Of a stretch of DNA of 26,338 nt, positions 3,330 to 24,987 are shown in pieces. Position 1 is the first letter of the stretch. Every line of letters starts with the position of its first letter. Made by a program: the position numbers and the translations under genes. Source of the stretch: Patescibacteria group bacterium (lineage in GTDB: Bacteria; Patescibacteriota; Minisyncoccia; Phycocordibacterales; UBA12079); assembly GCA_018894995.1 (NCBI GenBank), contig JAHIOZ010000098.1:1-26338 (forward strand). The letters are read 5' to 3'. Below the pieces are notes generated by a model. That model was not told the origin of the DNA. It worked only from the letters and a program-made list of their open reading frames with translations, and made no database searches.

Positions 3330-3334
3330 CGCAA

Positions 3335-3368
3335 AAGGTCGCGGAACGAACGCGGAATTACGCGGAAA
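3335..3368 (+). repeat. 10-nt-period repeat CGCRGAACGAACGCRGAATTACGCRGAAA; copies at 1820-1853, 17515-17551 (degenerate) and 18498-18527 (minus strand)
   Basis: Direct sequence comparison. Confidence 0.8.
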
Positions 3369-3388
3369 CGACGACGAGACGACGACGA

Positions 3389-3466
3389 AACGACGAAAGG
3401 CTTTGCCTTTCGTCGTTAACGATAAAACTCTGCTATCGTCTTTGCGAGCCGAAGGCGTGGCAATCT
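3389..3466. repeat. GACG...CGTC triloop hairpin followed by a CGTC-tagged REP-like element
   Basis: AACGACGAAAGGC-TTT-GCCTTTCGTCGTT (3389-3417); CGTCTTTGCGAG-CCGAAGG-CGTGGCAATCT (3437-3466). Confidence 0.75.
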
Positions 3467-6882: not shown

Positions 6883-9800
6883 ATGGATAATGAAAAAAAT
6901 ATAGATAATAAATCCGAAACTGCCCAAAGCGAGGAAAAGATTTTGGAGTTTTGGCGGGAGAATAAAATTTTTGAAAAGTCGTTGGACTCTAAACCTTCGG
7001 ACGGGCGAGGAAAAGAAGCGCCCAAAGGTGATTTTGTTTTTTACGACGGTCCGCCTTTTGCGACTGGTTTGCCTCACTATGGGCATATTTTGGCTGGAAC
7101 AATCAAAGATATTATTCCGCGTTATCAGACAATGCTCGGCAAAAAAGTTTCTCGTCGTTGGGGTTGGGATTGTCATGGTTTGCCGATTGAAAATTTGATT
7201 GAAAAGGAACTCAATTTAAAAACTAAACAAGATATTTACGATTACGGAGTGGAGAAATTCAATGAAGCTGCCAAACAAAGCGTACTTCGTTATGATGTTG
7301 ATTGGAAAAAGATTATTCCGCGAACGGGTCGCTGGGTGGATATGGGTTCAAGTTATCAAACAATGGATACTTCTTATTCTGAATCCATTTGGCATATTTT
7401 TAAAACTATTTATGATAAAAATTTAATTTACGAAGGACATAAAGCGATGCATCTTTGTCCTCGTTGTGAGACAACTCTTTCAAACTTTGAAGTTAATCAG
7501 GGGTATAAAGATATTAAAGATTTAACGGCGACGGTGAAATTCAAACTTGATGTCGGACAAAAAATTGGTGATTTTGTTGCAGATGATAATACTTACATTT
7601 TGGCGTGGACGACTACGCCGTGGACTTTGCCTGGAAATGTTGCACTCGCAGTAAATGATGGAATCATTTATGCTCGAATTCAAAAATCAAATATCAAAAA
7701 TCAAAATGAAAATGCAAAATTAAAAAATAACGAGACATATATTGTTGCTAAGGAAAGAATTGTTGGTGTTGTTGGTGATGAAGAATACGAAATAATTGAA
7801 GAATTCAAAGGTTCAGAATTGATTGGAAAATCTTACAAACCACTTTTTGATTATTATTTAAAAGATGAAAATTTGGAAAATCGCGAGAATGCCCGCCCGC
7901 AACGCCTGAGCGAGGCTCAGCCTAGCGATGGCGGGCGGGGTTGGAAAATTTACGGTGCGGATTTTGTGACTACTGAAGATGGAACTGGAATTGTTCACAT
8001 CGCTCCTGCTTTTGGTTCTGACGATATGGAGTTGGGGAAAAAAGAAAATTTACCGTTTATTCAGCATGTTTCAGTTGATGGAAAATTCAAACCGGAAGTT
8101 GGTGATGGCTTGGCTGGGTTGTATGTAAAACCTAAAGATGATTCTGCGAATGGACAAGACCATATGTCGACCGATATTGAAATAATAAAATTGTTGGCTA
8201 AAAAAGAAGCTCTGTTTTCAAAAGAAAAAGTCACTCACTCTTATCCTCATTGTTGGAGATGTGAAACACCTCTTTTAAATTACGCGACTTCGTCGTGGTT
8301 TTTGAAAGTTACGGGAATTAAAGATGAAATGATTAAAGTTAATCAAGGTGTTAATTGGGTGCCGGAAAATATGCGAGATGGAAGATTTGGAAAGTGGCTT
8401 GAAGGAGCGAGAGACTGGGCGATTTCAAGGACAAGATTTTGGGGGGCACCGTTGCCTGTTTGGAGGTGCCAAACTGGGAAATTCGAAACCTTAAATTCTA
8501 AATCCGAAACAAATTCAAATGGCCAAAATTTAAATGTTCAAAAAAATATCGGTTGCGGGGCGATGAGGGTTGTTGGTTCAATTGCCGAGTTGAAAGAGAA
8601 TTTGCCGAAAAGAAATAATATTTTTGTGATGCGACACGGAGAGGCGGACAACAACACTAAAAATGTAATCAGTACTCAAAAACTCAACGAGCATCATTTA
8701 ACCGAGAAAGGAAAAGAGCAGGTTTTGGGGGCGATTGGAAATTTAAAAAATCAAAAAATTGATTTAATTATTTCTTCTCCGTTTGTAAGAACAGTTGAAA
8801 CAGCTGAATTGGTAGCTGAAGGTTTGGGTTTAAAAAAAGAAGAAATTATTTTTGACGAGAGAATCGGAGAAATTAATTTGGGGGATATGGACGGAAAGAG
8901 TAATAAAGATTATCACAAATATTTTGAATCCCAATTGGAAAAATTCACTAAAACTCCACCAAACGGAGAAAGTTTGACCGACTTGAAAAAACGAGTCGCG
9001 GAATTTCTTTTTGAAATTAATGAAAAGTATGAAGGCAAAAATATTTTGGTTGTAACTCACGAATATTCTTTTTGGATGATGATGACCGTTTCTGATGCTT
9101 TGACGGATACTCAATCTGTAAAAATGAAAGACGATGAAAATATTGTTCAAAATGCGGAAGTCAGAGATTTGGATTTCAGAAGTTTACCTCATAACAAAAA
9201 TTACGAGATTGATTTGCATATGCCTTACATCGATGAGATTAAATTCAAATGTGCTTGCGGTGGAGAAATGAAAAGAATTCCTGAAGTGTTTGACTGTTGG
9301 TTTGAATCGGGGGCGATGCCTTATGCTTCCAATCACTATCCTTTTGAAAATTTGGATAAATTTAATCCTGAAAAAGAAATCGGTTTTCCGGCAGATTTTA
9401 TTGCCGAGGGTCAAGACCAAACACGAGGGTGGTTTTACACTTCGCTTGTTTTGGCAACCGCTTTGTTTGGAAAAACTTCTTATAAAAATGTAATTGTAAA
9501 CGGAATGGTTTTGGCGGAGGACGGAAAGAAAATGTCAAAGAGTTTGAAAAATTATCCTGACATTAATTATATTTTGGATAAATATGGAGCTGATGCGATG
9601 CGATATTATATGATAAATTCGCCGATTGTTCGGGCGGAAGATTTGAATTTCTCGGAAAAAGGAGTGGACGAAGTTTTGAAAAAAATTATTTTGAAAGTAA
9701 AAAATGTTTATTCGTTTTATGAATTGTATAAAGATGCTTTAAAAGAAAAAATTAATCCGCAGGATAGTAAAAATGTCTTGGATATTTGGATTTTATCCAG

Positions 9801-10659
9801 ATTGAATCAGTTGAACAATGAAATCACAACAGGATTAAATAACTACGAATTAGATCGAGCTTCACGACCGATTATGGATTTTGTGGATGATTTGTCTACT
9901 TGGTATATCCGTCGTTCTCGTGACAGGTTTAAGGGTGAAGATGAAAAAGATAAAAATTTTGCTTTGGCGACAACACAATTTGTATTGGTGGAATTTTCAA
10001 AATTGATTGCTCCGTTTATGCCGTTTTTGTCAGAAGAACTCTGGCAGAAAATTGAAAATGAAAATCTCAAAATGGAAAATGATAATGTAAAATTTAAAAT
10101 TACATCGGTGCATTTGCAGGATTGGCCAAAAGCGGGAAATGTTGATGAAAAAGTTTTGGAAGATATGAAAAAAGTTAGAGGGGTTGTTTCAATGGTATTA
10201 GAAGTAAGGGCAGAAGCTGGTTTGAAAGTTCGTCGACCGTTGGGTAAAGTTACAATTTATGGTTTATCTTATGAAAAAATAGATAAACAATTGCTGGATA
10301 TTATAAAAAATGAAGTTAATGTAAAAGATGTTGTTTTTGAAAAAGGAGATAGTAGAGTAGAGCTTGATGAAAAAATTACACCCGAATTAAAAATTGAGTG
10401 GCAATACCGAGAACTTTTTAGACATATTCAAAGAATGAGAAAAGATGCCAGACTTGTGCCAAGTGATGTTGTCGGCTTAATCGTTGAAACTTCCGATGAC
10501 GGAGAAAAATTGATTAAGAAATTTGAAGAAGATTTGAAAAAAACCACTGGAATTAAAGAAATTAAATTTGAGAAAAATATTGAAGATTTTGAAAATTCAA
10601 TCGTGCAAGGAGGAATTAAAATCGATGATTTGGAATTCAAACTGAGAATTGAAAAATAA
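6883..10659 (+). CDS. ileS: Isoleucine--tRNA ligase, type 2, with an inserted histidine-phosphatase domain
   Basis: FYDGPPFATGLPHYGH, GWDCHGLP, WTTTPWTLPGN, GTGIVHIAP, KMSKS; RHG domain at about aa 577-766. Confidence 0.97.
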   Translation: MDNEKNIDNKSETAQSEEKILEFWRENKIFEKSLDSKPSDGRGKEAPKGDFVFYDGPPFATGLPHYGHILAGTIKDIIPRYQTMLGKKVSRRWGWDCHGLPIENLIEKELNLKTKQDIYDYGVEKFNEAAKQSVLRYDVDWKKIIPRTGRWVDMGSSYQTMDTSYSESIWHIFKTIYDKNLIYEGHKAMHLCPRCETTLSNFEVNQGYKDIKDLTATVKFKLDVGQKIGDFVADDNTYILAWTTTPWTLPGNVALAVNDGIIYARIQKSNIKNQNENAKLKNNETYIVAKERIVGVVGDEEYEIIEEFKGSELIGKSYKPLFDYYLKDENLENRENARPQRLSEAQPSDGGRGWKIYGADFVTTEDGTGIVHIAPAFGSDDMELGKKENLPFIQHVSVDGKFKPEVGDGLAGLYVKPKDDSANGQDHMSTDIEIIKLLAKKEALFSKEKVTHSYPHCWRCETPLLNYATSSWFLKVTGIKDEMIKVNQGVNWVPENMRDGRFGKWLEGARDWAISRTRFWGAPLPVWRCQTGKFETLNSKSETNSNGQNLNVQKNIGCGAMRVVGSIAELKENLPKRNNIFVMRHGEADNNTKNVISTQKLNEHHLTEKGKEQVLGAIGNLKNQKIDLIISSPFVRTVETAELVAEGLGLKKEEIIFDERIGEINLGDMDGKSNKDYHKYFESQLEKFTKTPPNGESLTDLKKRVAEFLFEINEKYEGKNILVVTHEYSFWMMMTVSDALTDTQSVKMKDDENIVQNAEVRDLDFRSLPHNKNYEIDLHMPYIDEIKFKCACGGEMKRIPEVFDCWFESGAMPYASNHYPFENLDKFNPEKEIGFPADFIAEGQDQTRGWFYTSLVLATALFGKTSYKNVIVNGMVLAEDGKKMSKSLKNYPDINYILDKYGADAMRYYMINSPIVRAEDLNFSEKGVDEVLKKIILKVKNVYSFYELYKDALKEKINPQDSKNVLDIWILSRLNQLNNEITTGLNNYELDRASRPIMDFVDDLSTWYIRRSRDRFKGEDEKDKNFALATTQFVLVEFSKLIAPFMPFLSEELWQKIENENLKMENDNVKFKITSVHLQDWPKAGNVDEKVLEDMKKVRGVVSMVLEVRAEAGLKVRRPLGKVTIYGLSYEKIDKQLLDIIKNEVNVKDVVFEKGDSRVELDEKITPELKIEWQYRELFRHIQRMRKDARLVPSDVVGLIVETSDDGEKLIKKFEEDLKKTTGIKEIKFEKNIEDFENSIVQGGIKIDDLEFKLRIEK
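7891..7938. repeat. GC-rich 48-nt imperfect palindrome in frame inside ileS
   Basis: CCCGCCCGC...CTGAGC-GAG-GCTCAG...GCGGGCGG; encodes ARPQRLSEAQPSDGGR. Confidence 0.75.
8611..9180 (+). other. Histidine phosphatase (PGM/CobC-like) domain nested in IleRS
   Basis: R584-H585-G586, SSPFVR636T, E663, VVTH726. Confidence 0.85.
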
Positions 10660-11903: not shown

Positions 11904-12590
11904 ATGAAAAAGGAAAATTTTAAAAATGCTTATCAATTCAAAGTTTTGTTAGAAGGAGCGAAACCGCCGATTTGGAGAAGAATACAAGTTCCTGAAAATT
12001 TTAATTTTGAAGATTTGCACAAAACGATTCAACTGGCAATGGGTTGGTGTGATTGCCATTTACATCAATTTATAAATGTTGATCCAAGTCAAAATTATGG
12101 AAATAGAAAATTTATTAAAATACCGCACCCTGATGATTTTGATTTTGGCTCTGAAAAAACTTTTGATGAAAGGAAGGAAAAAATTTTTGATTGGTTTTTT
12201 TTGGACAAAGACGGTAAATCTAAGATGAAGTATGAGTATGATTTTGGCGATGGTTGGGAACATATGGTTACTCTTGAAAAAATTTTATCTGAGGAGAAGG
12301 GTGTTAAATATCCCCGTGTTGTAAAAGGAAAGGGTGCTTGCCCTCCTGAAAATGTTGGGGGTATTTGGGGTTATATGGATATTGTGGAAGCGATGAAAAA
12401 TCCAAAAAGCAAAGAAAGTCAAAAGTTTTTTCAAGAAATCTATGGCAGTTTTAAAGAATTTAAAGATTGGATGGAAGAGTTTGCTTGCGTTGATTTGGGT
12501 GAATTTGACCCAGAAAAATATGAAATTGAAGACGATGGTTTTTTGGAGTTAAAAGGGTATATTGGCATGAACGATTATATTGGGGAATAA
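11904..12590 (+). CDS. Plasmid pRiA4b ORF3-family protein
   Basis: IWRRIQVP...LH..IQ.AMGW.D.HLH.F, YEYDFGDGWEH, ACPPENVGG.WGY. Confidence 0.88.
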   Translation: MKKENFKNAYQFKVLLEGAKPPIWRRIQVPENFNFEDLHKTIQLAMGWCDCHLHQFINVDPSQNYGNRKFIKIPHPDDFDFGSEKTFDERKEKIFDWFFLDKDGKSKMKYEYDFGDGWEHMVTLEKILSEEKGVKYPRVVKGKGACPPENVGGIWGYMDIVEAMKNPKSKESQKFFQEIYGSFKEFKDWMEEFACVDLGEFDPEKYEIEDDGFLELKGYIGMNDYIGE

Positions 12591-12651
12591 TTTTAAAAAA
12601 TATTAAATTTGCATCATAAAAAATTTTACTTAAAAAACCTTTATTTTGTTT

Positions 12652-12926
12652 GTAACCACTCACACCTATAAACACCAAACTCATCAAAATCGATAACTGA
12701 CCTGGATCGCCACACTTTTCCGCTTCGCTCCGAAGTTCGCGAAGACGAAATGCCTTCGGCATTTCGTCGACGGATTTTCTTCTAGAAAATCCGTCTTCGC
12801 GAGCATGACACCATTTTTAAGTTTTTTGAAAAACAAAGTTTTTCAAAAAACTTAAAAATGGTGTCATGCGTGGCGACCCAACACTTATTAATTGGTCGTG
12901 GGAAGTCAACAAGTGTGAGTGGTTAC
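12652..12926 (+). mobile_element. MITE-like element copy A (275 bp)
   Basis: 14-bp TIR GTAACCACTCACAC/GTGTGAGTGGTTAC; flanks TTTTGTTT/CTTTGTTT (7/8 match). Confidence 0.85.
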
Positions 12927-13030
12927 CTTTGTTTACCCACACACCTAAAATTTTAGGTGTACGGGTTTATGAAAAAGGAATAAGGAAAATATAGAAACAC
13001 AGAAATTGAGGAATTTAGAGATAGAGAAAC

Positions 13031-13073
13031 AAAAAACGACGGAAATTTGCGGAGCAAATTTCCGTCGTTTTTT
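13031..13073. repeat. 20-bp perfect hairpin with GGA loop
   Basis: AAAAAACGACGGAAATTTGC-GGA-GCAAATTTCCGTCGTTTTTT. Confidence 0.8.
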
Positions 13074-13086
13074 TTGTTTTACTTTA

Positions 13087-13115
13087 TAGACTTTCAACTT
13101 TACAAACTTTATACT
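13087..13115 (+). promoter_or_regulatory. sigma70-like promoter, leaderless arrangement for recO
   Basis: TAGACT-17 bp-TATACT, 7 nt before ATG 13123; identical to 10839-10867. Confidence 0.6.
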
Positions 13116-13122
13116 CTTACAT

Positions 13123-13740
13123 ATGGAACACAACATCTACACCACCAAAGGAATAATTTTAAACAGTTTTGGCATTGGCGAGGCGGATAAACTTTTTCGA
13201 ATTTTTACGAAAGATTTCGGTTTGATTGATGCGACAGCTCAAGGAGTGAGAAAAATTGAATCAAAAAATCGTTATGGTTTGCAAGATTTTTCGGTTTCTG
13301 ATTTTTCGTTGGTGCGAGGCAGGGATATTTGGAGAATTACTAATGTGGCACCTATAGAAAATTTATATTTTGTTTTTAGTAATAATTTGGACTGCACAGA
13401 AAATAATAAAAAATTTAATACAGTTTTGAATATTTTTTCTTTAATTCGAAGATTTATTCAAGGTGAGGAAAAAAACGAAAATCTTTTTAATTTGATTTTA
13501 AACGCAATAACTTTTTTAAAACAAAATAATTTGGAAGATAAAGATTTAAGAAATTTTGATTTGATTGTTTCCATAAAAATATTAAATAACCTCGGTTATT
13601 TTGATGAAAAAAATCAAAAAGAAATTTTTTCAAAATTTTTGAAAAATGAAATAAGCAAAGATTTGATTGTTGAGATGGGGAGTTTGAAATTTCAAGCAGA
13701 AAAGGTGATAGGGGAAGCTGTGGAAGAGAGCCACCTTTGA
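13123..13740 (+). CDS. recO: DNA repair protein RecO
   Basis: T.GIIL...IGEADKL..IFTKDFGLI.A.AQGVRK..SK.R..LQ OB-fold N-terminus. Confidence 0.9.
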   Translation: MEHNIYTTKGIILNSFGIGEADKLFRIFTKDFGLIDATAQGVRKIESKNRYGLQDFSVSDFSLVRGRDIWRITNVAPIENLYFVFSNNLDCTENNKKFNTVLNIFSLIRRFIQGEEKNENLFNLILNAITFLKQNNLEDKDLRNFDLIVSIKILNNLGYFDEKNQKEIFSKFLKNEISKDLIVEMGSLKFQAEKVIGEAVEESHL

Positions 13741-13884
13741 GTAATAAGTATTAAGTAATAAGTAGTAAGAACGACGAAACCCTCTGGGTTTCGTTGTTCG
13801 GTAAAAAACAAGTTTAACGGGGCAAGCAGAGATGAATTCCTTTTGGGAATTCGTTGACGAAGTTTTGCTTCGCAAAACTTCGTC
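13741..13884. repeat. 7-nt-period tract plus a cluster of triloop hairpins
   Basis: GTAATAA/GTATTAA units; hairpins at 13769-13799, 13831-13855 and 13856-13884. Confidence 0.75.
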
Positions 13885-14125
13885 GTCGTGTTTAGAAATT
13901 AAAAATTCAGATTTATTTAAAAATTAAAAATTAAAAATTAAAAAATTTTAAACATTCGCATAATATTAGTATGTTTACCTCGTTTATTCGTATCATCCGT
14001 CGTTCTAAAAACTAAAAACTATCGACTGAAAACTTTTTAAAGTATTCGGATTATATACACAAATTTTACCAATTACCCACTACAATAACTGTAAACTATC
14101 AATTAAATTTGCTATACTTTTACCA

Positions 14126-16042
14126 ATGCCAAACAATGAAGAAAAAAACAGAATAGAAAAATTAAAAGACAGGCTTTACTCCAAGAAAGATATTATTCGC
14201 AGGGAGAGGTCGCAGTTCCCCAGAAAAATTTATGATGTGAAAGTTGCTTGGGAAGACAAAGATAATAATCAGGTTTTCCCTGATAAAAATGATTTAAAAA
14301 AAATGAAAAAAAAGACATTTTTAGAAAAAACATTAGTCGCTGCAGTTATATTTTTTTTGATATCGGCTATTGTTGTTTTTGTCGCAGTTTTTGGAGGAGC
14401 AACAAATGTTTCTTCTGATAATGTGGAAATATCTGTGACAGGGCCTTCTACTATTGAAAGTGGGGGGGAACTATTAATGCAGGTTTCCATTAAAAATAAC
14501 AATTCAGTTGATTTGGAATTGGCCGATTTGATAATTGAATATCCGGAAGGAACTCATTCTGCAAGCGGGGACATTCAAGATCTAAATTCGGTTAGAGAAT
14601 CAATGGACATTATATCTGCCGGAAAAAGTGTCCGAAAAGAATATAAATCAATTTTATACGGCGAAGAGAATAGTGAGAAAGATATTGTTATAAGTCTTGA
14701 ATACAGAATCGCAGGGTCAAACGCTATCTTTTTTAAAGATAGAAAATATGAAATAAAAATCAGTTCCTCACCAATCAATTTAATAGTTAGCCCATTAAAA
14801 GAAGTTATTTCAGGTCAAGACATTGAACTTTCAGTTAGTGTTGTATCTAATACTCCCAACGAAATTAATGATTTGTTGGTTAGTATTGAATATCCTTTTG
14901 GTTTTGAATTCAAGAGTGCTAGTCCTGAACCGGAATTTGGCAATAATGTTTGGAAAATAAAAAGTATTGATTCAAGCAGTCAAAATGTTATAAAAATAAA
15001 AGGTACCATAACAGGACAAGATGATGAAGAAAGGGTATTTAAATTCAGTAGTGGTACGAGAGATTTTAAAAATGAAAAAGAAATAGGAGCACTTTTTGCT
15101 TCTGTGACAAAATCTTTGTTAATAAAGAAACCTTTCTTAGGTATTGATATTGCTCTTAATGGAGATACTTCTGCTACCTATGTTTCTCAAAGAAATAAAT
15201 CAATTAGAGTTGATGTGATGTGGTCAAATAATTCACCGGCTACTATAATTGATGGTGAAATCCTCATTAAATTAAAAGGGGATATATTGGATAAATCTAG
15301 TATCTCAGTTGATAAAGGATTTTATCGTTCTTTTGATAACACAATAGTTTGGAATAAAACAACCAGCGGTGAGTTGTCCGAGATAAACTCGGGAGAAGGC
15401 GGTCGTTTCAGTTTTTCTTTTTCACCGTTATCTCTTTCTGCAAAAAGCGGTTTTGTTGACCCTGAAATCTTAATAAATGTCAGTGCAAAAGGAAATAGAA
15501 TTTCTGAAAACGAAACTCCGGAAGAAGTTATTTCCACCGTTTCAAAAGTTGTTAAAATATCTTCGGATTTGATGATTGCTCCGAGGGCGACTTATTATAC
15601 CGGACCTTTTGTTAATACGGGATCAATTCCACCAAAAGTCGATAAAGAAACAACTTATACTATTACATTAACGGTAACAAACACAACAAATAATGTATCT
15701 GATGTTAAAGTTTCGCTTTCTTTGCCCGCTTATGTTCGTTGGATGGGGGTCGTTTCGCCGACTTCTGAAAATATTTCCTATAATTCTATCGGAGGAGAGA
15801 TTGTTTGGAATATTGGAGACGTAAAACCTGGTGCAGGGACTAAGGAAGTGTATTTCCAAGTGGCTTTGTTGCCAAGTATCAGCCAGGTTGGTGAAAGTCC
15901 TAAGTTGACGAGTGATATTGTTATGGAAGGAATAGATCAATTTACAAATGCAATTATAAGAAAAACAGAAAAGGGTGTTTCCACTACTCTAAATACTGAT
16001 TCCGGATTTACCGGTTCAGGAGATGCGAGAGTGGTTCAATAG
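14126..16042 (+). CDS. Membrane-anchored hypothetical protein with beta-rich (Ig-like/DUF11-like) extracellular domains
   Basis: 638-aa ORF with one TM at about aa 68-90, then Ser/Val/Ile-rich beta-strand patterns. Confidence 0.8.
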   Translation: MPNNEEKNRIEKLKDRLYSKKDIIRRERSQFPRKIYDVKVAWEDKDNNQVFPDKNDLKKMKKKTFLEKTLVAAVIFFLISAIVVFVAVFGGATNVSSDNVEISVTGPSTIESGGELLMQVSIKNNNSVDLELADLIIEYPEGTHSASGDIQDLNSVRESMDIISAGKSVRKEYKSILYGEENSEKDIVISLEYRIAGSNAIFFKDRKYEIKISSSPINLIVSPLKEVISGQDIELSVSVVSNTPNEINDLLVSIEYPFGFEFKSASPEPEFGNNVWKIKSIDSSSQNVIKIKGTITGQDDEERVFKFSSGTRDFKNEKEIGALFASVTKSLLIKKPFLGIDIALNGDTSATYVSQRNKSIRVDVMWSNNSPATIIDGEILIKLKGDILDKSSISVDKGFYRSFDNTIVWNKTTSGELSEINSGEGGRFSFSFSPLSLSAKSGFVDPEILINVSAKGNRISENETPEEVISTVSKVVKISSDLMIAPRATYYTGPFVNTGSIPPKVDKETTYTITLTVTNTTNNVSDVKVSLSLPAYVRWMGVVSPTSENISYNSIGGEIVWNIGDVKPGAGTKEVYFQVALLPSISQVGESPKLTSDIVMEGIDQFTNAIIRKTEKGVSTTLNTDSGFTGSGDARVVQ

Positions 16043-16066
16043 ATTTTTAGATAACTTATATTTATT

Positions 16067-17512
16067 ATGAATAAAAAAGAACAAGATAACAAAAATTTGA
16101 ATTCACAAAATGAATCGGACAAGATCCTAAATTTGCAAAGCAAATCGGACAAGATGGAAAAAATAGTTTCTTTGGCAAAGAGAAGAGGTTTTGTTTTTCC
16201 GTCTTCAGAAATTTATGGCGGTTTTGCCGGTGTTTATGATTTTGGACCAATGGGAGTTGAATTGGAAAATAATATAAAAAATCACTGGTGGAAATGGATG
16301 GTTCAAAAAAGAAGAGATATTGTTGGGTTGGATTCGGGAATTTTTATGAATCCAAAAATTTGGGAAGCTTCGGGACACACCAAAGGTTTTTCTGACCCGA
16401 TGGCGGAGTGCAAGGAATGCAATACAAGAATTAGAGTTGATAAAATTTTGGAAGAAATTGGAATTATCGCTGACGAAAAAATGTCTGAAGAAGAAATCAA
16501 TAAATTGTTTGATGAGAATAGAGATAAAATAAAATGTTCAAAATGTGGCAAGAAAAATTTTTCAAAGGTTCAAAAATTTAATCTTTTGGTTCAATCAAAC
16601 CTCGGAGATTTTACTGAGAAAGGCGACAACCCCGCTTATTTAAGAGGGGAGACTTGTCAGGGTATTTATGTAAACTTTTCAAATGTTGTTGATTCAACTC
16701 ATATGAAGTTGCCTTTTGGAATTGCCCAAATTGGTAAAGCTTTTAGAAATGAAATTTCTCCGCGACAGTTTTTGTTCAGAGGGAGAGAGTTTGAACAGAT
16801 GGAAATGCAATATTTTACTCATCCGGAAGACGAAATGAAAGAATACGAAAAATTGAAAGAGTATCGCTGGAAAGCAGTTTTGGATTTGGGATTAAGAGAA
16901 GAAAATCTTCGTTGGAAAAAACACGAGAATTTGGTTTTTTATGCAAAAGACGCTTGGGATATTGAATATAATTTCCCTTGGGGTTTTGATGAATTGGAGG
17001 GGGTGCATGCACGCGGAAATTACGACTTAACTCAACATTCTGAAGGAAGCGGAAAAACGCAAGATTATTATGACCAAGAAAAAAACGAAAGATTTATTCC
17101 GCATATTATAGAATCTTCCGGCGGAGTTGGGCGCTATGTTTTTGCGGTTTTGAATGATGCTTATACTGAAGAGGAAGTAAATGGAGAGATGAGGGTAGTT
17201 TTGAAATTAGACAAAAAAATTGCTCCTGTAAAAGTTGCTGTGTTGCCGTTGTCTAAAAAAGATGAATTATCAAAACCAGCTTTGGAACTTTTTGAAAAAT
17301 TGAATGAAAATTTTATTTGTCAGTATGATGAAACCCAGTCAATCGGGAAGAGATACAGAAGGCAAGACGAAATTGGCACCCCTTATTGCGTCACTTTTGA
17401 TTTTGATTCGCTTGAAGATAATTCTGTAACTGTTCGTGACAGAGACACAATGCAACAGGACAGGATTAAGATTGATGAGTTGGTTGGATATTTGAAAGAG
17501 AGATTGAGTTGA
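16067..17512 (+). CDS. glyQS: Glycine--tRNA ligase (alpha2, GlyQS type)
   Basis: AKRRGFVFPSSEIYGG, LRGETCQG, IGKAFRNEISPRQFLFR.REFEQME, SIGKRYRRQDEIGTP. Confidence 0.97.
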   Translation: MNKKEQDNKNLNSQNESDKILNLQSKSDKMEKIVSLAKRRGFVFPSSEIYGGFAGVYDFGPMGVELENNIKNHWWKWMVQKRRDIVGLDSGIFMNPKIWEASGHTKGFSDPMAECKECNTRIRVDKILEEIGIIADEKMSEEEINKLFDENRDKIKCSKCGKKNFSKVQKFNLLVQSNLGDFTEKGDNPAYLRGETCQGIYVNFSNVVDSTHMKLPFGIAQIGKAFRNEISPRQFLFRGREFEQMEMQYFTHPEDEMKEYEKLKEYRWKAVLDLGLREENLRWKKHENLVFYAKDAWDIEYNFPWGFDELEGVHARGNYDLTQHSEGSGKTQDYYDQEKNERFIPHIIESSGGVGRYVFAVLNDAYTEEEVNGEMRVVLKLDKKIAPVKVAVLPLSKKDELSKPALELFEKLNENFICQYDETQSIGKRYRRQDEIGTPYCVTFDFDSLEDNSVTVRDRDTMQQDRIKIDELVGYLKERLS

Positions 17513-17574
17513 TGCGGAACGAACACGGAACTATGCAGAACACACGCGAAAGAATTAGGTGAAAATTAAAATAA

Positions 17575-17602
17575 AAAAATGTGTCGCAAGCGACACATTT
17601 TT
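17575..17602. terminator. Probable bidirectional terminator
   Basis: AAAAATGTGTCGC-AA-GCGACACATTTTT between convergent genes. Confidence 0.7.
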
Positions 17603-17609
17603 GACTAAA

Positions 17610-18080
17610 TTATTTAATGAGATGAAAGATTTTTTGCGGGTCAAATCCTTGAATAATTAATAAAATTTCTAAAAAATCTTTTTTGCTCATTTGCCATCTG
17701 AAGATGATGTTGAAACAGTCGTTCCTTGTTTCTTTTGCTGTGAGAAAGAAACCTTTATCTTTTTCGGGGTTGGGATTTTCGCACTCGTGCAATTTATCCG
17801 GAGGTCTTATTTTTGAAAGTTTTTCTGCAAATTTATCCCAAAAACATAGGCATAAAATAAAGGCATGTTCTTCGGATGACCCTGTTGTTGGGTGAGCACC
17901 GCAAATAACATTTAAATGAGAAGTTTCTACTCTGAAAATTTCTTCTTCTCCTGGAAATTGATACAGGGTAGCTACCTTTCTACCGCATTTTTTACAAATA
18001 AATTTTGTTGTGTCAGGTACTGTTTCTTTTTTTGAACACATTTTACCAACAATATTATTATCATACTTCGCTGTTATCAT
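17610..18080 (-). CDS. Hypothetical protein with CxxC motif (156 aa from the second ATG)
   Basis: ORF; AGGAGG SD precedes the ATG at 18080; CKKC motif. Confidence 0.65.
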   Translation of the reverse strand: MITAKYDNNIVGKMCSKKETVPDTTKFICKKCGRKVATLYQFPGEEEIFRVETSHLNVICGAHPTTGSSEEHAFILCLCFWDKFAEKLSKIRPPDKLHECENPNPEKDKGFFLTAKETRNDCFNIIFRWQMSKKDFLEILLIIQGFDPQKIFHLIK

Positions 18081-18178
18081 AATCTTTCCCCTCCTCATAT
18101 TTAATTGTTATCAAAAATTTCCCGATTTCTGCATATTACTATATAATAGATTGATACTAAAAAGCAATAGTTAGAGAA

Positions 18179-18463
18179 GTAACCACTCATACTTGTTGAA
18201 TTTTCATAACTAATTAATAAGCGATGGATCGCCACGCATGACACAATTTTTAAGTTTTTTGAAAAACTTTGTTTTTCAAAAAACTAAAAAATGGTGTCAT
18301 GCTCGAGAAGACGGATTTTCCAGAGGAAAATCCGTCGACGAAATGCCGAAGGCATTTCGTCTTCGCGAACTTCGGAGCGACAGCGGAGAAGTGTGGCGAT
18401 CCAGAGTAACATCGTCAATTATCGATTTTAATGAGTTTGATGTTTATAAGTGTGAGTGGTTAC
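18179..18463 (-). mobile_element. MITE-like element copy B (285 bp), inverted relative to A
   Basis: TIRs GTAACCACTCATAC/GTGTGAGTGGTTAC; flanks TTAGAGAA/TTAGGGAA (7/8); colinear with A. Confidence 0.85.
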
Positions 18464-18566
18464 TTAGGGAATTTAATAATCAATTTTTCAGTTTGGTTTT
18501 CCGCGTAATTCCGCGTTCGTTCTGCGACAATCCGCGATTTATTCGACTGGAAGGAGAATAAATACT

Positions 18567-19841
18567 ATGAAATACAACAAAAAAATATTAAAAAACGGAT
18601 TAAGAATAATTACTGTGCCGATGCAGGATAACAATACTGTGACAGCTTTGGTGTTGGTGGAGGCCGGTTCCAAATATGAAAACGAAAAGAATAACGGGAT
18701 TTCTCACTTTTTGGAGCATATGTGTTTTAAAGGTACTGACAACCGTCCCAATCCGGGTGATATTTCTCACGAGCTTGACGCTTTGGGTGCTCAGTCAAAC
18801 GCTTTTACTTCTCAGGAATTTACCGGTTATTATGCCAAAGCTCACACAAAGCAAACCCATAAATTAATTGATATTATTTCTGATTTGTATTTGAACCCAA
18901 TTTTCAACGATGCGGAAATTGAAAAAGAAAAAGGTGTGATTATTGAAGAAATGAATATGTATAAAGATTTGCCGATGAGAGACATCCACGATGTTTTTAT
19001 GCGTTTGTTGTATGGTGACAGTCCAACCGGGAGAAATATTGTTGGAACAAAAGAAATCATTAAATGTGTAATTAAAAAAGATTTTGAAGATTATCGAAAA
19101 AATCACTATGTTGCTTCGGCGACGACCGTTGTGGTGTCGGGGAAATTTGATGAGAAAAAAGTAATTAAAGACATTGAAGAAAGGTTTAAAAATGTCAGTG
19201 TAGAGAAACATCATAAAAAAGAAAAAGTTAAAGAAAATCAAAAAGCCCCGCAAATTGCAATTAAAAATAAAAAACTTGACCAATCCCATTTGATTTTGGG
19301 AGTGAGGGCTTTTGATTTATTTAAAAAAGACAGTGCCGTTGTTTCAGTTATCGCGGGTATTCTTGGCAAGGGGATGAGTTCTCGATTGTTTTTCAAATTA
19401 AGAGAAGAAATGGGAGTTTGTTATTATGTGCGAGCGGGGAATAATGCTTTTACCGATCACGGTTTTTTCAATATTTCAGCGGGAGTTGACAACAGTAGGG
19501 TGGAGGAAGTGGTCGGGGTTTTGTTGGAGGAAATGAGAAAGTTAAAAAAAGATTTGGTGAGTAATTTTGAATTAAAAAAAGTTAAAGAATATATGACTGG
19601 TAGTTTGTTTCTCGGCCTTGAGTCTTCCGATGATTTGGCGGAATATTACGGAATTCAAGAAATTTTAAATCAAGAAATAAAAAAACCAAAAGAAAAAGCC
19701 AAAAGAATCAGAGAAATTACCGCTCAAGACATAAAGAGAGTGGCAAACAAAATTTTTAAAAATGAAAGTCTAAACCTAGCGGTTGTCGGACCGATAGATG
19801 ATAAGAAGAAAGAGGAGATTAAAAAGATGTTTGGAATTTAA
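18567..19841 (+). CDS. M16 family (pitrilysin/insulinase) zinc peptidase
   Basis: GISHFLEHM (HxxEH), NAFTS.E.TGYY, EKEKGVIIEE, SSRLF.KLREE.G..Y. Confidence 0.95.
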   Translation: MKYNKKILKNGLRIITVPMQDNNTVTALVLVEAGSKYENEKNNGISHFLEHMCFKGTDNRPNPGDISHELDALGAQSNAFTSQEFTGYYAKAHTKQTHKLIDIISDLYLNPIFNDAEIEKEKGVIIEEMNMYKDLPMRDIHDVFMRLLYGDSPTGRNIVGTKEIIKCVIKKDFEDYRKNHYVASATTVVVSGKFDEKKVIKDIEERFKNVSVEKHHKKEKVKENQKAPQIAIKNKKLDQSHLILGVRAFDLFKKDSAVVSVIAGILGKGMSSRLFFKLREEMGVCYYVRAGNNAFTDHGFFNISAGVDNSRVEEVVGVLLEEMRKLKKDLVSNFELKKVKEYMTGSLFLGLESSDDLAEYYGIQEILNQEIKKPKEKAKRIREITAQDIKRVANKIFKNESLNLAVVGPIDDKKKEEIKKMFGI

Positions 19842-19864
19842 GTAAAATTTTTTCCAAAAATTTT

Positions 19865-20012
19865 AGAATTAAGAATTAAGAATAACGAATTATGAATGAT
19901 GAATCTAGAATACGACGACGGATTTTGCTTCGCAAAATCCGTCGTTTAATAGTTTAAAAACCTAAAATTAAAAAACGACCAAATGTGGCGACCGTCACAT
20001 TTGGTCGTTTTT
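19865..20012. repeat. 7-nt-period tract plus two hairpins
   Basis: AGAATTA-type units at 19865-19911; hairpins at 19915-19945 (TTC loop) and 19971-20012. Confidence 0.7.
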
Positions 20013-20034
20013 GAGTCATTAAATTTCAAAATAA

Positions 20035-20057
20035 AAAGCCCACTTACAGCGGGCTTT
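20035..20057 (-). terminator. Terminator for the minus-strand orphan
   Basis: On the minus strand AAAGCCCGCT-GTA-AGTGGGCTTT followed by Ts. Confidence 0.5.
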
Positions 20058-20078
20058 AGTCTTGAGAAAGAAAATAAA

Positions 20079-20450
20079 TTATGGTTCAATCACTACAACC
20101 ATATTTCTTGTTTTTTCTTTGCAAATAATAAAAATATTGTAACCTTTCTCACCATCGCCATCAATACTACCTTTTCGAACATTTTCAAGGGTTTCGCAGA
20201 TATAGCTCAAAATGTGGTTTGTAAAATCTTTACTCTTCACATTTTCAGCTACATAGGACAAAATTTTGACGGAGTTCCTCGTCACAGAGATTACATTTAT
20301 TGCCTCTGATATAACCTGCACCCAATTTTTCTCGTTGAAGGTAAAACCTAGAGGGGTTGACTCCGGTTCAATCGAAGGCCCGAGCAATGTTACTAACTCT
20401 TTTTGAACTAATTGTTCTTTGAATAAAATACCTTCCATTAATTGGTTCAT
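20079..20450 (-). CDS. Hypothetical protein (123 aa, start MNQLMEG)
   Basis: ORF; AAGGAG SD 5 nt before the ATG at 20450. Confidence 0.6.
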   Translation of the reverse strand: MNQLMEGILFKEQLVQKELVTLLGPSIEPESTPLGFTFNEKNWVQVISEAINVISVTRNSVKILSYVAENVKSKDFTNHILSYICETLENVRKGSIDGDGEKGYNIFIICKEKTRNMVVVIEP

Positions 20451-20649
20451 TTTGTTCTCCTTGGGGTTATCCCTTTTGAGTTTTTTAAGAATAACTTTAT
20501 TACTGATATCCGAAAGAAGTGTATAAAAAAATAATCGGTAAGTCAATTTAAGAAAACCCAAGTTCAAAAATTAGTTGCAACACCTAAGTCTATTAATTAA
20601 GATTTAGGCAATATGAAAAATAAAAAAGCAGGTATTTAATCAGGTTTAC

Positions 20650-20684
20650 AAAAAACCACGGAAGCAAGGCTTCCGTGGTTTTTT
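20650..20684. terminator. Terminator downstream of the DUF378 gene
   Basis: AAAAAACCACGGAAGC-AAG-GCTTCCGTGGTTTTTT, 16 bp perfect. Confidence 0.75.
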
Positions 20685-20718
20685 ATTGAAATACCCGTAA
20701 ATTTAAGAGAGCTGAGTA

Positions 20719-20940
20719 TTAAGCGCAGGAACATTTTCTGCAACTTATCAGCATAGTGATTGCTGAAATTCCAACAAGAAGATATACAATATTTTCAACT
20801 GTAGGCCATTGACCTGCAATCAAATTTACAATATTCCAATTTCCTCCTAAGAAATATCCCAAACCTGTTAACCCCCAGTTAAGTGCCCCGATGAACATTA
20901 ACCAGTAAGCGATAGTTCCTGTTGTTGTTTTACATTTCAT
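20719..20940 (-). CDS. DUF378-family small membrane protein
   Basis: IGALNWGL.G...N.V..I...IVY.LVGISA motif. Confidence 0.88.
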   Translation of the reverse strand: MKCKTTTGTIAYWLMFIGALNWGLTGLGYFLGGNWNIVNLIAGQWPTVENIVYLLVGISAITMLISCRKCSCA

Positions 20941-21022
20941 AACAAAAATTATTTATATATTTATAATAATTCGACTCAATTAAATTATAACAGTTTTAAA
21001 TAATTGTCATAGTTGATAACTA

Positions 21023-21222
21023 GTAACCACTCACACTTATAAACATCAAATTCAATAAAATCGATAACTGACATTAGTTAGTCTGGATCGCCACACTTCT
21101 CCGCTTCGCTCCAAATTTCGTCGACGGATTTTCCTCTGGAAAATCCGTCTCTGCGAGCGATAGTGTGGCAGTCTAGAAATTTATTCATAATCCGTAAGGA
21201 TTTAACAACTGTGAGTGATTAC
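21023..21222 (+). mobile_element. MITE-like element copy C (200 bp)
   Basis: Left TIR GTAACCACTCACAC, degenerate right TIR CTGTGAGTGATTAC; perfect 8-bp TSD GATAACTA. Confidence 0.85.
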
Positions 21223-21265
21223 GATAACTAAAGTCGGCAGTCTGAAAATGACAAAACTATAAAAC

Positions 21266-21322
21266 ACGACGAAACCCAAAGGGTTTCGTCGTCACTTACT
21301 ACTTACTACTTATTACTTAATA
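21266..21322. repeat. Hairpin plus 7-nt-period tract, reverse-complement relative of 13747-13799
   Basis: ACGACGAAACCC-AAA-GGGTTTCGTCGT, then CTTACTA/CTTATTA units. Confidence 0.7.
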
Positions 21323-21334
21323 CTTTTTTCTCCC

Positions 21335-21363
21335 TTGCTACTTATTCTTCACTATTTTATACT
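21335..21363 (+). promoter_or_regulatory. sigma70-like promoter, leaderless arrangement
   Basis: TTGCTA-17 bp-TATACT, 6 nt before ATG 21370. Confidence 0.65.
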
Positions 21364-21369
21364 ATAGTT

Positions 21370-22404
21370 ATGGATAAAGAACTTACAATCAACATAACTT
21401 CCGGGACAATTGTTAAAACAATATTGTTTGTTTTGCTTGTCGTCTTACTGTATTTTTTGAAAGATTTGGTTTTGGTCATATTAACCGCGATTGTGATTGC
21501 TTCTTCTGTTGAGCCGATAACCAAATGGTTTATTCAAAGAAAAATTCCAAGACTGGTTGCTGTTATTTTGATTTATTTTTCCGTAGCTTTTTTGGTTGCA
21601 GGACTTTTCTTTTTGCTGATTCCTCCTTTATTGGATGATGCCTCCAGTCTTATGGCAACCCTCCCTCAATATTTTGAGGACATAAAATTGAATACTTCTT
21701 TAGGAACGGGAATAGATACAACTTTTTCTTTAAGAGAATTTGTTTCTGAATTTAGAGATGGGATAACAGGTGCGACCGGAAGTGTCTTACAAACAGTCAG
21801 CTCAATTTTTGGTGGTGCAATCAACTTTGTTCTTATCATCATACTTTCCTTTTATTTGGCAGTTCAAGAGTTTGGAATCGCCAGTTTTTTGAGGATTATA
21901 ACTCCGGTCAATAAAGAAAAATACATTATAGATCTGTGGAAAAGATCGCAGTTTAAAATCGGTTTGTGGATGCAAGGGCAACTGCTTTTAGCTTTAATCA
22001 TTGGAGTATTGGTGTATCTCGGACTTACAATCTTGGGTATTAAGTATGCTTTCCTTTTTGCTTTATTGGCTGCTATTTTGGAGCTTATCCCTTTGTTTGG
22101 CCCCGTAATTGCGGCTGTCCCTGCTATTATTGTTGGTTTTGTTGACGGAGGGGCAACTCTCGGTTTTCTTGTTACAGGATTTTATATTATTATTCAACAG
22201 TTTGAAAATCATCTGATTTATCCTTTGGTTGTTAAAAAAGTGGTTGGGGTTCCTCCTTTACTGGTTATTCTCGCTCTTATTATTGGAGCGAAGTTAGCCG
22301 GTTTTTTGGGTATACTTTTGTCAGTTCCTGTGGCTGCTGCTCTTATGGAATATGTTCATGACATAGAAGCAGAAAAGAAAAAATTGATGCAGGAGAATTC
22401 TTAA
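21370..22404 (+). CDS. AI-2E family (PerM/UPF0118-like) transporter
   Basis: Multi-TM protein with LELIP.FGP, QQFENHLIYP.V...VG.PP...ILAL..G..L.G.LG..LSVP.AA. Confidence 0.92.
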   Translation: MDKELTINITSGTIVKTILFVLLVVLLYFLKDLVLVILTAIVIASSVEPITKWFIQRKIPRLVAVILIYFSVAFLVAGLFFLLIPPLLDDASSLMATLPQYFEDIKLNTSLGTGIDTTFSLREFVSEFRDGITGATGSVLQTVSSIFGGAINFVLIIILSFYLAVQEFGIASFLRIITPVNKEKYIIDLWKRSQFKIGLWMQGQLLLALIIGVLVYLGLTILGIKYAFLFALLAAILELIPLFGPVIAAVPAIIVGFVDGGATLGFLVTGFYIIIQQFENHLIYPLVVKKVVGVPPLLVILALIIGAKLAGFLGILLSVPVAAALMEYVHDIEAEKKKLMQENS

Positions 22405-22437
22405 TCTTAATTGATGATAATTTGTTGTCGTCTTTGT

Positions 22438-22521
22438 GTGTGGATTTTGGGTGGTTTTTTTTGAACGCCCCACCCTCTAAAGAGGGTGGGGCGTTCAAAA
22501 AAAACCGCCCAAAATCCACAC
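22438..22521. repeat. 40-bp inverted repeat with one G.T pair, between the AI-2E gene and metG
   Basis: 22438-22477 pairs with 22482-22521; loop TAAA. Confidence 0.8.
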
Positions 22522-22567
22522 GACAACCCAAAATCACTTTAACTTTATATAATAATATAAACCAGTT

Positions 22568-24124
22568 ATGGAAAATCTAAACAAAAAATTTTATATTACA
22601 ACCGCCATTGATTATGTGAATGGCAAACCTCATTTAGGCCACGCTTTGGAAAAAATACAGGCGGATGTTTTGGCTCGTTACAAAAGATTGATACTAGGAG
22701 ACGATGATATATATTTTTTGACAGGTGCAGATGAGCATGGGTCTAAAATATTTAGAACAGCTGAAAAACAAGGTAAAGAAGTTCAATCTTTTGTCGATGA
22801 AAACACAGAAGTTTTTAGAAATCTTTGGAAGACATTGAATATTTCAAATAATGATTTTATCAGGACTTCCGATAAAAAAAGGCATCGGGTTGGTGCTCAG
22901 GCTTTGTGGAACAAAATTTTTGAAGCCGGTGATTTGGAGAAAGCAAAATACAGCGGTTTGTATTGTGTTGGTTGCGAAGCTTTTGTCACGGAAAAAGATT
23001 TGATTGACGGAAAATGTCCCAATCACGATACTGCACCGGAAAAAATAGAAGAAGAAAATTATTTTTTTAAAATTTCCAAATATATTGAAGATGTAAAATC
23101 AAAAATTGAATCTGATGAATTGCAAATAATTCCTGCCGGCAGAAAAAATGAGATTTTGGCGATGATTGAGAGGGGGGTGGAAGATATCAGTTTTTCTCGT
23201 CCTAAAGAAAAATTGAGTTGGGGAGTTGATATTCCCAATGATGATTCTCAAGTAATGTATGTCTGGTGTGACGCTTTGGCAAACTATATTTCTGCTTTAG
23301 GTTTTGGTTCAGATGGTGATGATAATTTTAAAAAATATTGGCCGGCTGATGTTCATATGATTGGAAAAGACATTTTGCGTTTTCATGCAATTGTTTGGCC
23401 TGCGATGTTGTTGTCGGCAGGGTTGCCCTTGCCTAAAAAAATATTTGTTCACGGATTTTTGACTTCTGATGGTAAAAAAATGTCTAAAAGTTTAGGTAAT
23501 GTTATTGACCCGGTTGATTTGATTAACGAGTACGGAACGGAAGCTTTGAGGTATTTTCTCTTGCGAGAAGTAACTCCTTTTGAAGACGGAGATATCACTT
23601 TAGAAAAATTTAAAGAAGCTTATAATGCCAATCTCGCCAACGGTTTGGGAAATTTGGTGAGTAGAATTTTAACAATGACACAAAATTCAAACGTTAATAT
23701 AGCTATTGCGGAAAGTAATAAAGATGTATTGTTTGAGCAGTTTAAGACAGATAAATTTTCAGGAATTAGAAATACTGAAACTGGAGCTGGTGGAGAAAAT
23801 TTTATAGAAAAAAAGATGCCGAGCTATCTTTTTTATGAAAAAGAACACTTTTTTATTTTTGGTGATACACTTGATTTTTTTGATTTTCAAAAAGCAATGG
23901 ATCGTATTATGGCTGATGTAAAATCAATGGATGTTTTTATTACTAGAACAGAGGTATACAGAAAAGATTCAAAAGATAGAGATAAAAATCTAATGCGACT
24001 TTTAATCAATTTAAAAAATGTAGCTTTGTCTTTGCAACCTTTTATGCCCGAAACTTCTGAAAAAATTCAACATCTAATTAAAGAAAACAAATCTCCGGAG
24101 ACACCTTTATTTAAAAGGAAGTAG
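22568..24124 (+). CDS. metG: Methionine--tRNA ligase (short form, no C-terminal Trbp domain)
   Basis: YITTAIDYVNGKPHLGH, GADEHG, CVGCE...CP.H knuckle, YVWCDAL.NY, KMSKS. Confidence 0.97.
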   Translation: MENLNKKFYITTAIDYVNGKPHLGHALEKIQADVLARYKRLILGDDDIYFLTGADEHGSKIFRTAEKQGKEVQSFVDENTEVFRNLWKTLNISNNDFIRTSDKKRHRVGAQALWNKIFEAGDLEKAKYSGLYCVGCEAFVTEKDLIDGKCPNHDTAPEKIEEENYFFKISKYIEDVKSKIESDELQIIPAGRKNEILAMIERGVEDISFSRPKEKLSWGVDIPNDDSQVMYVWCDALANYISALGFGSDGDDNFKKYWPADVHMIGKDILRFHAIVWPAMLLSAGLPLPKKIFVHGFLTSDGKKMSKSLGNVIDPVDLINEYGTEALRYFLLREVTPFEDGDITLEKFKEAYNANLANGLGNLVSRILTMTQNSNVNIAIAESNKDVLFEQFKTDKFSGIRNTETGAGGENFIEKKMPSYLFYEKEHFFIFGDTLDFFDFQKAMDRIMADVKSMDVFITRTEVYRKDSKDRDKNLMRLLINLKNVALSLQPFMPETSEKIQHLIKENKSPETPLFKRK

Positions 24125-24129
24125 TGCGT

Positions 24130-24175
24130 TTGCTTTTTCTTTTTTTTATTACTATAATCAATATTAATTAATATT
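24130..24175 (+). promoter_or_regulatory. TA-operon promoter with a palindromic operator candidate
   Basis: TTGCTT-17 bp-TATAAT (24130-24158); perfect palindrome AATATTAATTAATATT at 24160-24175. Confidence 0.6.
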
Positions 24176-24190
24176 AATCAAAATAAAATT

Positions 24191-24427
24191 ATGGTAACAA
24201 CAATGCCTATTACAAAAGCAAGGATTAATTTAGGGGCGGTGGTTAAAAGAGTCAGTTTAAATAAAGAAAGAATAATCTTGGAAAAAGATGGTTTTCCGGT
24301 TGCCGTTATCGTTGATTTGGAAACATTTGAGGATATTGTTGATTCTGTTGATTTAGAAAAAGCAGTTGGAACATCAAAAAGAGAGTTTATAAGCATAGAA
24401 AATGCAATGAAGAAATATGCTCTATAA
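24191..24427 (+). CDS. Phd/YefM-family antitoxin
   Basis: MPITKARINL..VVKRV....ERIILEKDG.PVAVIV pattern; upstream of and overlapping the toxin. Confidence 0.85.
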   Translation: MVTTMPITKARINLGAVVKRVSLNKERIILEKDGFPVAVIVDLETFEDIVDSVDLEKAVGTSKREFISIENAMKKYAL

Positions 24428-24683
24428 AGTTCTTCTTGATAAATCAGCAGATAAATCTTTAGAAAAAATAAACAAATCAGACAAACAGATTGGTCAAAAG
24501 ATTTTACTTGCTTGTTTGGAATTAAAAAATTTTTCAGAAACCTCTGCTGGAATAAAGAAACTGCACTGCCCTTTTGTTGGTTTTAGAAGAAGAGTTGGCA
24601 GGTATAGGATTTTATTTTTAGTAAATAATAAATCTGTTGAAATTTATAAAATAGGATTGAGAAATAATGTTTATAAAAAATGA
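24417..24683 (+). CDS. RelE/ParE-family toxin
   Basis: YKV.L.KSA.K.L.K...IKKL....FR.RVG.YRILF......VEI.KIG.R.NVYK. Confidence 0.88.
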   Translation: MLYKVLLDKSADKSLEKINKSDKQIGQKILLACLELKNFSETSAGIKKLHCPFVGFRRRVGRYRILFLVNNKSVEIYKIGLRNNVYKK

Positions 24684-24744
24684 TGGATTTTAATTTAAAA
24701 AGATATAATATTTAATTAAATTTATTTTGTGAAGGTCTGTTTTT

Positions 24745-24964
24745 GTAACCACTCACACTTATTAAATTTATACGATTATTGAAATTGCTCGTATATTTGA
24801 TATAGTTAGTCTGGATTGTCGCGCTATCGCTCGCAGAGACGGATTTTCCTTTGGAAAATCCGTCGACGAAATTTGGAGCGAAGCGGAGAAATGTGGCGAT
24901 CCAGACTAATTAATATCAATTATCGATTTTAATGATTTTGATATTTATAGGTGTGAGTGGTTAC
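24745..24964 (-). mobile_element. MITE-like element copy D (220 bp), inverted relative of C
   Basis: 14-bp perfect TIR; perfect 8-bp TSD CTGTTTTT. Confidence 0.88.
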
Positions 24965-24987
24965 CTGTTTTTGGTCTGTATAATATT

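Follow-up and report, generated by a model that had tools for sequence, protein, structure and literature searches.

IS66-type ends are probably carried by a family of miniature transposable elements with REP-like interiors in a small Patescibacteria genome

Four short, non-coding elements on a 26,338-nucleotide contig from a Patescibacteria group bacterium (JAHIOZ010000098.1, contig C110 of its assembly; we refer to the whole stretch as "the window") are very probably non-autonomous MITEs (miniature inverted-repeat transposable elements) that have the ends of insertion sequences (ISs) of the IS66 family, specifically the ISBst12 group, which have a single open reading frame (ORF). The source is a metagenome-assembled genome (MAG) of the Patescibacteria/Candidate Phyla Radiation (CPR) that is 80% complete, with 0.89 Mb assembled in 186 contigs; the metagenome runs that contain it are from groundwater. 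The elements have terminal inverted repeats (TIRs), a target-site duplication (TSD) of fixed length, a small size with no transposase ORF, and many copies that derive from one short founder. Other genomes, and also metagenomes, contain autonomous elements that share these ends and this TSD length; these elements have a DDE_Tnp_IS66 domain, a single ORF, inverted repeats that start with GTAA, and an 8-bp direct repeat. Because full-length IS66-family elements share both the ends and the 8-bp duplication, the parent type can be named with good confidence. On the same two grounds, a transposase of this kind may well have mobilized the MITEs.

Each of the four elements starts with the 14-mer GTAACCACTCACAC and finishes with its reverse complement, GTGTGAGTGGTTAC. 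With up to two mismatches allowed, the 14-mer occurs at exactly eight sites in the window, and these form four inward-facing pairs: 12652/12926 (MITE A), 18179/18463 (MITE B), 21023/21222 (MITE C), and 24745/24964 (MITE D). The number expected by chance is 0.04 (dinucleotide-preserving shuffles; 0/100 reach eight). An initial annotation of the window had placed four elements with 14-bp TIRs at these positions and had described the ends of B and C as slightly degenerate, and both statements were borne out: the TIRs of A and D are perfect, the left TIR of B has one mismatch, and the right TIR of C has two. The TIR consists of 14 perfect base pairs with an imperfect extension to ~21 bp.

The same annotation had reported a different 8-bp direct repeat around each element, and this holds as well. 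The duplications are perfect for MITE C (GATAACTA at 21015–21022 and again at 21223–21230) and MITE D (CTGTTTTT at 24737–24744 and 24965–24972), and match at seven of eight positions for MITE A (TTTTGTTT at 12644–12651, CTTTGTTT at 12927–12934) and MITE B (TTAGAGAA at 18171–18178, TTAGGGAA at 18464–18471). Elsewhere in the same genome, further copies have perfect 8-bp TSDs (contigs C125, C144, and C167) or 7/8 matches (C44, C77, and C158). When 30 elements from five genomes were compared in an 8-nt register, 12 had 8/8 and five had 7/8 matching positions; for the same elements, registers of 7, 9, and 10 nt gave no match.

A search for the TIR across the whole genome, a step that the initial annotation had proposed, yielded 30 sites with one mismatch or fewer, vs 0 for a reversed control. 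We extracted 15 complete elements of 183–528 bp, and profile searches with nhmmer found 23 copies of each of two arms, many of them at contig ends. All aligned copies have a common order, i.e., an alpha arm of ~60 nt (GTAACCACTCACACYTATAAACATCAAACTCATTAAAATCGATAAYTGAC), a core, and a beta arm of ~40 nt, the exception being a beta-beta copy on contig C5. The core consists of a frame, CTGGATCGCCAC ... GTGGCGATCCAG, around a GC-rich hairpin, or two of them, plus an AT-rich palindrome that can be exchanged and that comes in three versions or is missing. MITE A (plus strand, 275 bp) has its alpha arm on the left and a core at 12702–12881 that includes hairpins H1 (12744–12768) and H2 (12769–12795) and a long AT-rich palindrome; MITE B (minus strand, 285 bp) has its alpha arm on the right and the same modules (H2 at 18310–18336, H1 at 18337–18361). 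MITE C (plus strand, 200 bp) and MITE D (minus strand, 220 bp) are short forms with H2 only (21123–21149 and 24838–24864, respectively). A and B are 89% identical to each other, and C and D are 90% identical; divergence between copies is ~10–25%. The asymmetric alpha arm is conserved and lies on the plus strand in A and C and on the minus strand in B and D, consistent with the initial description of an asymmetric arm in both orientations.

The GTAA ends and the 8-bp duplication led us to test the IS66 family as the parent. Inverted repeats beginning with GTAAGCG, together with direct repeats of 8 bp, are described as hallmarks of this family (PMC11946415). We used comparison genomes from the same order as the window's genome: G045 (a Ca. 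Taylorbacteria MAG), G114, G067, and G269. G045 encodes a 416-aa ORF with a DDE_Tnp_IS66 domain (PF03050, E = 2.5e-37), the stop codon of which lies within the terminus GTAACCCCTCACACC. This ORF scores 213 against NF033517, above the cut-off of 180 bits; two other transposases score below it, at 157 and 172. PF03050 E-values for the partner transposases range from 2.5e-37 to 6.8e-30, and in their alignment the D, D, and E positions are invariant and the motif QLCWAH is present. In G045, an IS982-like element with a DDE_Tnp_1_3 ORF and 27-bp inverted repeats interrupts the IS66-type element on its 5' side (L004, contig C20, 3935–4917).

Relatives of the G045 transposase in representative genomes provided full-length partners. 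The element at locus L024 is 1483 bp long, with a perfect 8-bp TSD (GAGCTATT) and one in-frame stop in its transposase; that at L032 is 1559 bp long, with a perfect 8-bp TSD (TACCTAAT) and an intact 489-aa ORF; and that at L025 is 1527 bp long, with a 487-aa ORF. A complete chromosome, OY969576, has at least nine IS copies, which are for the most part 1556 bp long and have an ORF of 494 aa; the 8-bp TSD is perfect in seven of the eight copies that were examined. A search of this chromosome for MITEs found only the ends of full-length or longer IS copies. Two other long TIR pairs in relatives were rejected as partners: one of 1870 bp in G045 (L009) is a chance match inside a helicase ORF, and one of 900 bp (L001) is formed by a MITE and a solo end on either side of a pilin-like gene. 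An exact pattern combining the transposase C-terminus with the TIR had one match among representative genomes, in an archaeon, and this is probably due to chance.

A scan of metagenomes added 80 loci; 73 were examined, and 65 of these have inverted-repeat pairs. Nearly all of the paired loci are elements of 1.47–1.6 kb with ends of the GTAAC(C/T)NCTCACAC type, and 12 have a perfect 8-bp TSD. Both ends of one such element, L068, are exactly GTAACCACTCACAC, identical to the 14-mer of the window. The ends of two others, L061 and L062, are a GTAACCGCTCACAC variant that is also present in MITEs of G045 and G114. The full-length partners are 1.47–1.6 kb long, with a single ORF of 487–494 aa and no tnpA/tnpB accessory genes. 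The ISBst12 group is defined by a single ORF (PMC12898284), and we therefore assign the partners to it. A published member of the group, ISDge4 of Deinococcus geothermalis, has one 449-aa transposase gene, an 8-bp direct repeat, and ends of the sequence GTAACTGCTCAGCA; its transposition has been observed (PMC12898284). The initial annotation had not recognized the TIR and had suggested that the family might be undescribed; the TIR is of a known type. The annotation had also proposed a search for an ORF-containing element with matching ends; such elements turned up in other CPR genomes and in metagenomes, and none in the window's own assembly.

Within the order, the 14-mer, allowing for a variable position 7, has a patchy distribution. 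It is multi-copy in G045, G114, G067, and G269, and searches of six genomes from the same genus and twelve from the same family did not find it. The elements that it bounds in the four multi-copy genomes are 141–249 bp long and have 8-bp TSDs, which are perfect in seven of the 15 listed and match at six of eight positions in two. Apart from REP-like (repetitive extragenic palindrome-like) palindromes in some of them, the interiors of these MITEs are unrelated to those of the window's family. At one locus in G114 (L011, contig C1), two MITEs lie head to tail (3084–3272 and 3281–3450), with a single 8-mer, GGCTAGAG, between them; this 8-mer also forms the perfect duplication of the second MITE.

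These observations suggest a mechanism in which a DDE transposase of the ISBst12 group, supplied in trans, would bind both GTAACCACTCACAC ends. The proposed driver is an ISBst12-type transposase with GTAACCNCTCACAC ends. The element would insert where the target is cut with a stagger of 8 bp, and repair of this stagger would generate the 8-bp duplication. The hairpin interior would ride along as cargo that belongs to a separate repeat system, with the central palindrome apparently swapped or lost between copies. The idea that the elements are non-autonomous, lacking a transposase and moved in trans, was already part of the initial annotation and gains support from these sequence comparisons.

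Several observations weigh against an ISBst12-type parent. First, searches of the window's own assembly found no IS66-family transposase or fragment of one, whether with the PF03050 hidden Markov model, by tblastn with five CPR transposases, or by blastn with two ISs. Second, only the terminal 14–15 bp are common to the MITEs and the ISs; past nt 15, the MITE arms bear no resemblance to the ends of six ISs (all |z| < 2). Third, the IS with the identical ends, L068, comes from a GC-rich host and was found in 14 runs, none of which is among those containing this genome. Fourth, an empty site was not recovered in any comparison made. Genomes of the same genus keep the gene order, and in two of them MITE B is absent from the spacer between the prolyl-tRNA synthetase (ProRS) and M16 peptidase genes; these ProRS–M16 spacers are 65–80% diverged and have other repeats inside, such that a single 8-mer is unreadable. 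A near-identical assembly (GCA_022012895.1, 99.5–99.97%) has MITEs C and D in place, and the other contigs found by exact look-ups of flanking proteins break within or before the MITE. An exact empty-site pattern for MITE D had no match in metagenome contigs, and a comparison of G157 with G045 was too diverged and rearranged to read.

Three other explanations were weighed. The one that survives best, if only for part of the element, is that these are palindromes of the REP type, or bacterial interspersed mosaic elements (BIMEs), spread by REP-associated tyrosine (Y1) transposases (RAYTs), the terminal repeats being no more than the outermost stem of a long hairpin. The interior of the MITEs fits this well. 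The inner frame and hairpins occur at ~77 loci in the genome, many of which have no outer MITE arms, and there are four Y1_Tnp (PF01797, RAYT-like) ORFs, on contigs C83 (245–568), C71 (3147–3368), C170 (2350–2589), and C107 (1778–2008), that are candidate movers of the hairpin frame. As single strands, whole MITEs fold far better than shuffled sequences, with z-scores of −17 (A) and −12 (D). Nested palindromes of this sort are expected to fold strongly, and the folding does not count as evidence for a functional RNA; an Rfam search with the elements gave no family match. What separates the outer unit from a REP is the TSD, which is specific to the 8-nt register; fixed 8-bp target duplications are not known from REP/RAYT spread. 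The outer 14-mer is also conserved across lineages in which the interiors are unrelated, and it also stands at the ends of DDE transposons. For the inner core alone, spread by a RAYT is a reasonable reading; for the outer unit it is refuted by the TSDs, and as an account of the whole element it is very unlikely.

The second explanation is that these are MITEs of another family that makes 8-bp duplications. TSDs of ~8 bp are made by the IS1595, ISL3, and IS256 families, which the initial annotation had put forward as parents, and the window's own genome has no transposase of any family next to these ends. All of the full-length elements with these ends encode an IS66-family DDE transposase, one IS (L068) has the identical 14-mer at both ends, and a GTAA start is an IS66 signature (PMC11946415). 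We therefore place the parent in the ISBst12 group rather than in any of the three families named earlier, or a similar one, which we consider slightly less probable still than RAYT spread of the whole element. The third explanation, that each short element is a full-length IS66-type IS decayed by internal deletion in place and that the short form never transposed, would suit an assembly with no active partner, but it is the least credible of all, since deletions that arose separately would not produce matching junctions of alpha arm, core, and beta arm across 14 aligned copies and 23 arm pairs, and no copy has any transposase-derived sequence.

The MITE copies are not, then, full-length ISs that each decayed in place. 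Alpha-core-beta junctions common to so many copies indicate that one short founder multiplied as a short element, most likely with the recognition ends of an ISBst12-group IS. Given the divergence between copies and an 80%-complete assembly with no matching transposase, the family probably goes back to an old burst and has since been orphaned; the driver could instead sit in unassembled DNA.

The MITE interior appears to be a REP-like repeat system that is resident in the genome and nested inside the element, with differences between lineages. In G045, the hairpin of the MITEs is present 232 times, vs five paired MITEs and a few solo ends, and in G067 the core motif is also present outside the MITEs; overall, the interior motif was found outside MITEs in G000, G045, and G067. 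The 14-bp ends are the same in the five genomes examined, and the palindromic interiors between them differ. This raises the possibility, which is speculative and which we regard as improbable, that an IS66-type end pair repeatedly picks up the REP-like hairpins of its host lineage, either because a REP doublet is needed in cis or because DDE-type MITEs and RAYT/REP systems cooperate. If true, the REP doublet would, for example, assist transposition or retention structurally or through a link to replication, and the combination of a DDE-type MITE with a RAYT/REP system would be a recurrent chimeric class rather than chance nesting.

All four MITEs in the window are intergenic, with Pfam-supported flanking genes, and no ORF in the window matches a transposase family, in agreement with what had been noted at the outset. 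MITE A lies between a PRiA4_ORF3-family gene and RecO; MITE B between an ORF with no assigned family and an M16 peptidase; MITE C between a DUF378 gene and an AI-2E transporter; and MITE D between a ParE-like toxin and TatD. The PRiA4_ORF3-family gene beside MITE A (11904–12590) has no counterpart at the syntenic locus in six same-genus genomes and may be an acquired gene. The toxin is part of a pair with a PhD/YefM antitoxin (24191–24683) directly upstream of MITE D. Open frames within the MITEs reach 107 aa and are repeat-derived; the single one tested has no Pfam match, and among the larger copies checked no frame exceeds 91 aa. A 107-aa frame at 18238–18561, which lies mostly within MITE B and has no Pfam match, probably owes its existence to the GC-rich repeat and would be spurious as an ORF. 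For annotation, the MITE family explains why spurious, GC-rich ORFs are called in spacers, of which 18238–18561 is an example.

The genome contains other repeats. Matches to PF05635, the 23S rRNA intervening-sequence protein (IVP), number eight, two or three of which have stops; sites include C67 (13124–13441), C41 (2677–2985), C108 (8235–8549), C77 (702–1007), C163 (1590–1901), and C78 (1470–1780). The four matches with inspected flanks are in hairpin cassettes of ~400–500 bp with arms made of heptamer arrays (e.g., GGTTAAC/GAGTTAAC, GTGGGTA, and TAGGGTT). These IVP cassettes are a separate mobile cassette family, not bounded by the MITE TIR. An origin of the MITE family from IVP cassettes emptied of their gene is not supported, given these different ends and the lack of any frame above 91 aa in the larger MITE copies checked. 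Within the window, two inverted copies of a TAAGTAG-like heptamer array joined to a GACGAAACCC...GGGTTTCGTC hairpin (13739–13797 and 21266–21332) resemble the arms of the IVP cassettes, and one of them is 44 bp from MITE C. A near-perfect palindrome of 93 bp (22434–22526) lies between the AI-2E transporter and methionyl-tRNA synthetase genes; it also occurs on contig C88 and in a genome of the same genus. Another repeat family (13963–14105) has 99% identical copies on C71, C8, and C179, mostly near contig ends. Away from the repeats, the isoleucyl-tRNA synthetase gene (6883–10659) encodes an inserted His_Phos_1 histidine-phosphatase domain at residues 580–735.

As a class, the MITE family is ordinary selfish DNA. 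What sets it apart is mainly how densely it occurs in so small a genome, together with the repeated combination of IS66-type ends and a REP-like cargo that is specific to the lineage. CPR/Patescibacteria genomes are seen as streamlined; despite this view, a 0.89-Mb genome carries at least 23 MITE copies, ~77 REP-like loci, four RAYT-like genes, and several hairpin gene cassettes. Such repeats lie at many contig ends and probably help to fragment the assembly into its 186 contigs. The link between these MITEs and the ISBst12 group offers a testable pair of transposase and substrate for a transposon family with a poorly characterized mechanism. The MITE family may be uncatalogued; the literature searched contained no description of MITEs from CPR bacteria, nor of MITEs derived from IS66.

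Three known systems resemble the family in different ways. Its ends resemble those of the ISBst12 group, for example ISDge4. ISDge4 starts with GTAAC, and its GTAACTGCTCAGCA end agrees with the ends of the CPR ISs, GTAACTGCTCACAC, at 11 of 14 positions; there is an 8-bp direct repeat at the insertion site; and the CPR full-length elements that share the MITE ends have one DDE_Tnp_IS66 transposase ORF of ~450–495 aa. Unlike ISDge4, the window's elements are non-coding, are 200–285 bp long, and have only the terminal 14–15 bp in common with such ISs, and their hosts are CPR/Patescibacteria, with no partner IS in their own assembly. REP/BIME repeats and their RAYTs resemble the core, which consists of GC-rich hairpins in inverted pairs that are abundant outside MITEs, in a genome with four Y1_Tnp genes; in contrast to REPs, the outer unit is bounded by terminal repeats of the DDE type and flanked by target duplications of 8 bp. 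As a whole, the family resembles other bacterial MITEs, such as the Cardinium MITE (PMC9769881) and MITEPsy1/2 (PMC3189936), which are likewise short, non-coding, bounded by TIRs, flanked by TSDs, multi-copy, intergenic, and highly structured. It differs from them in its probable parent, an IS66/ISBst12 element, and in a modular, REP-like interior that is also free-standing in the genome.

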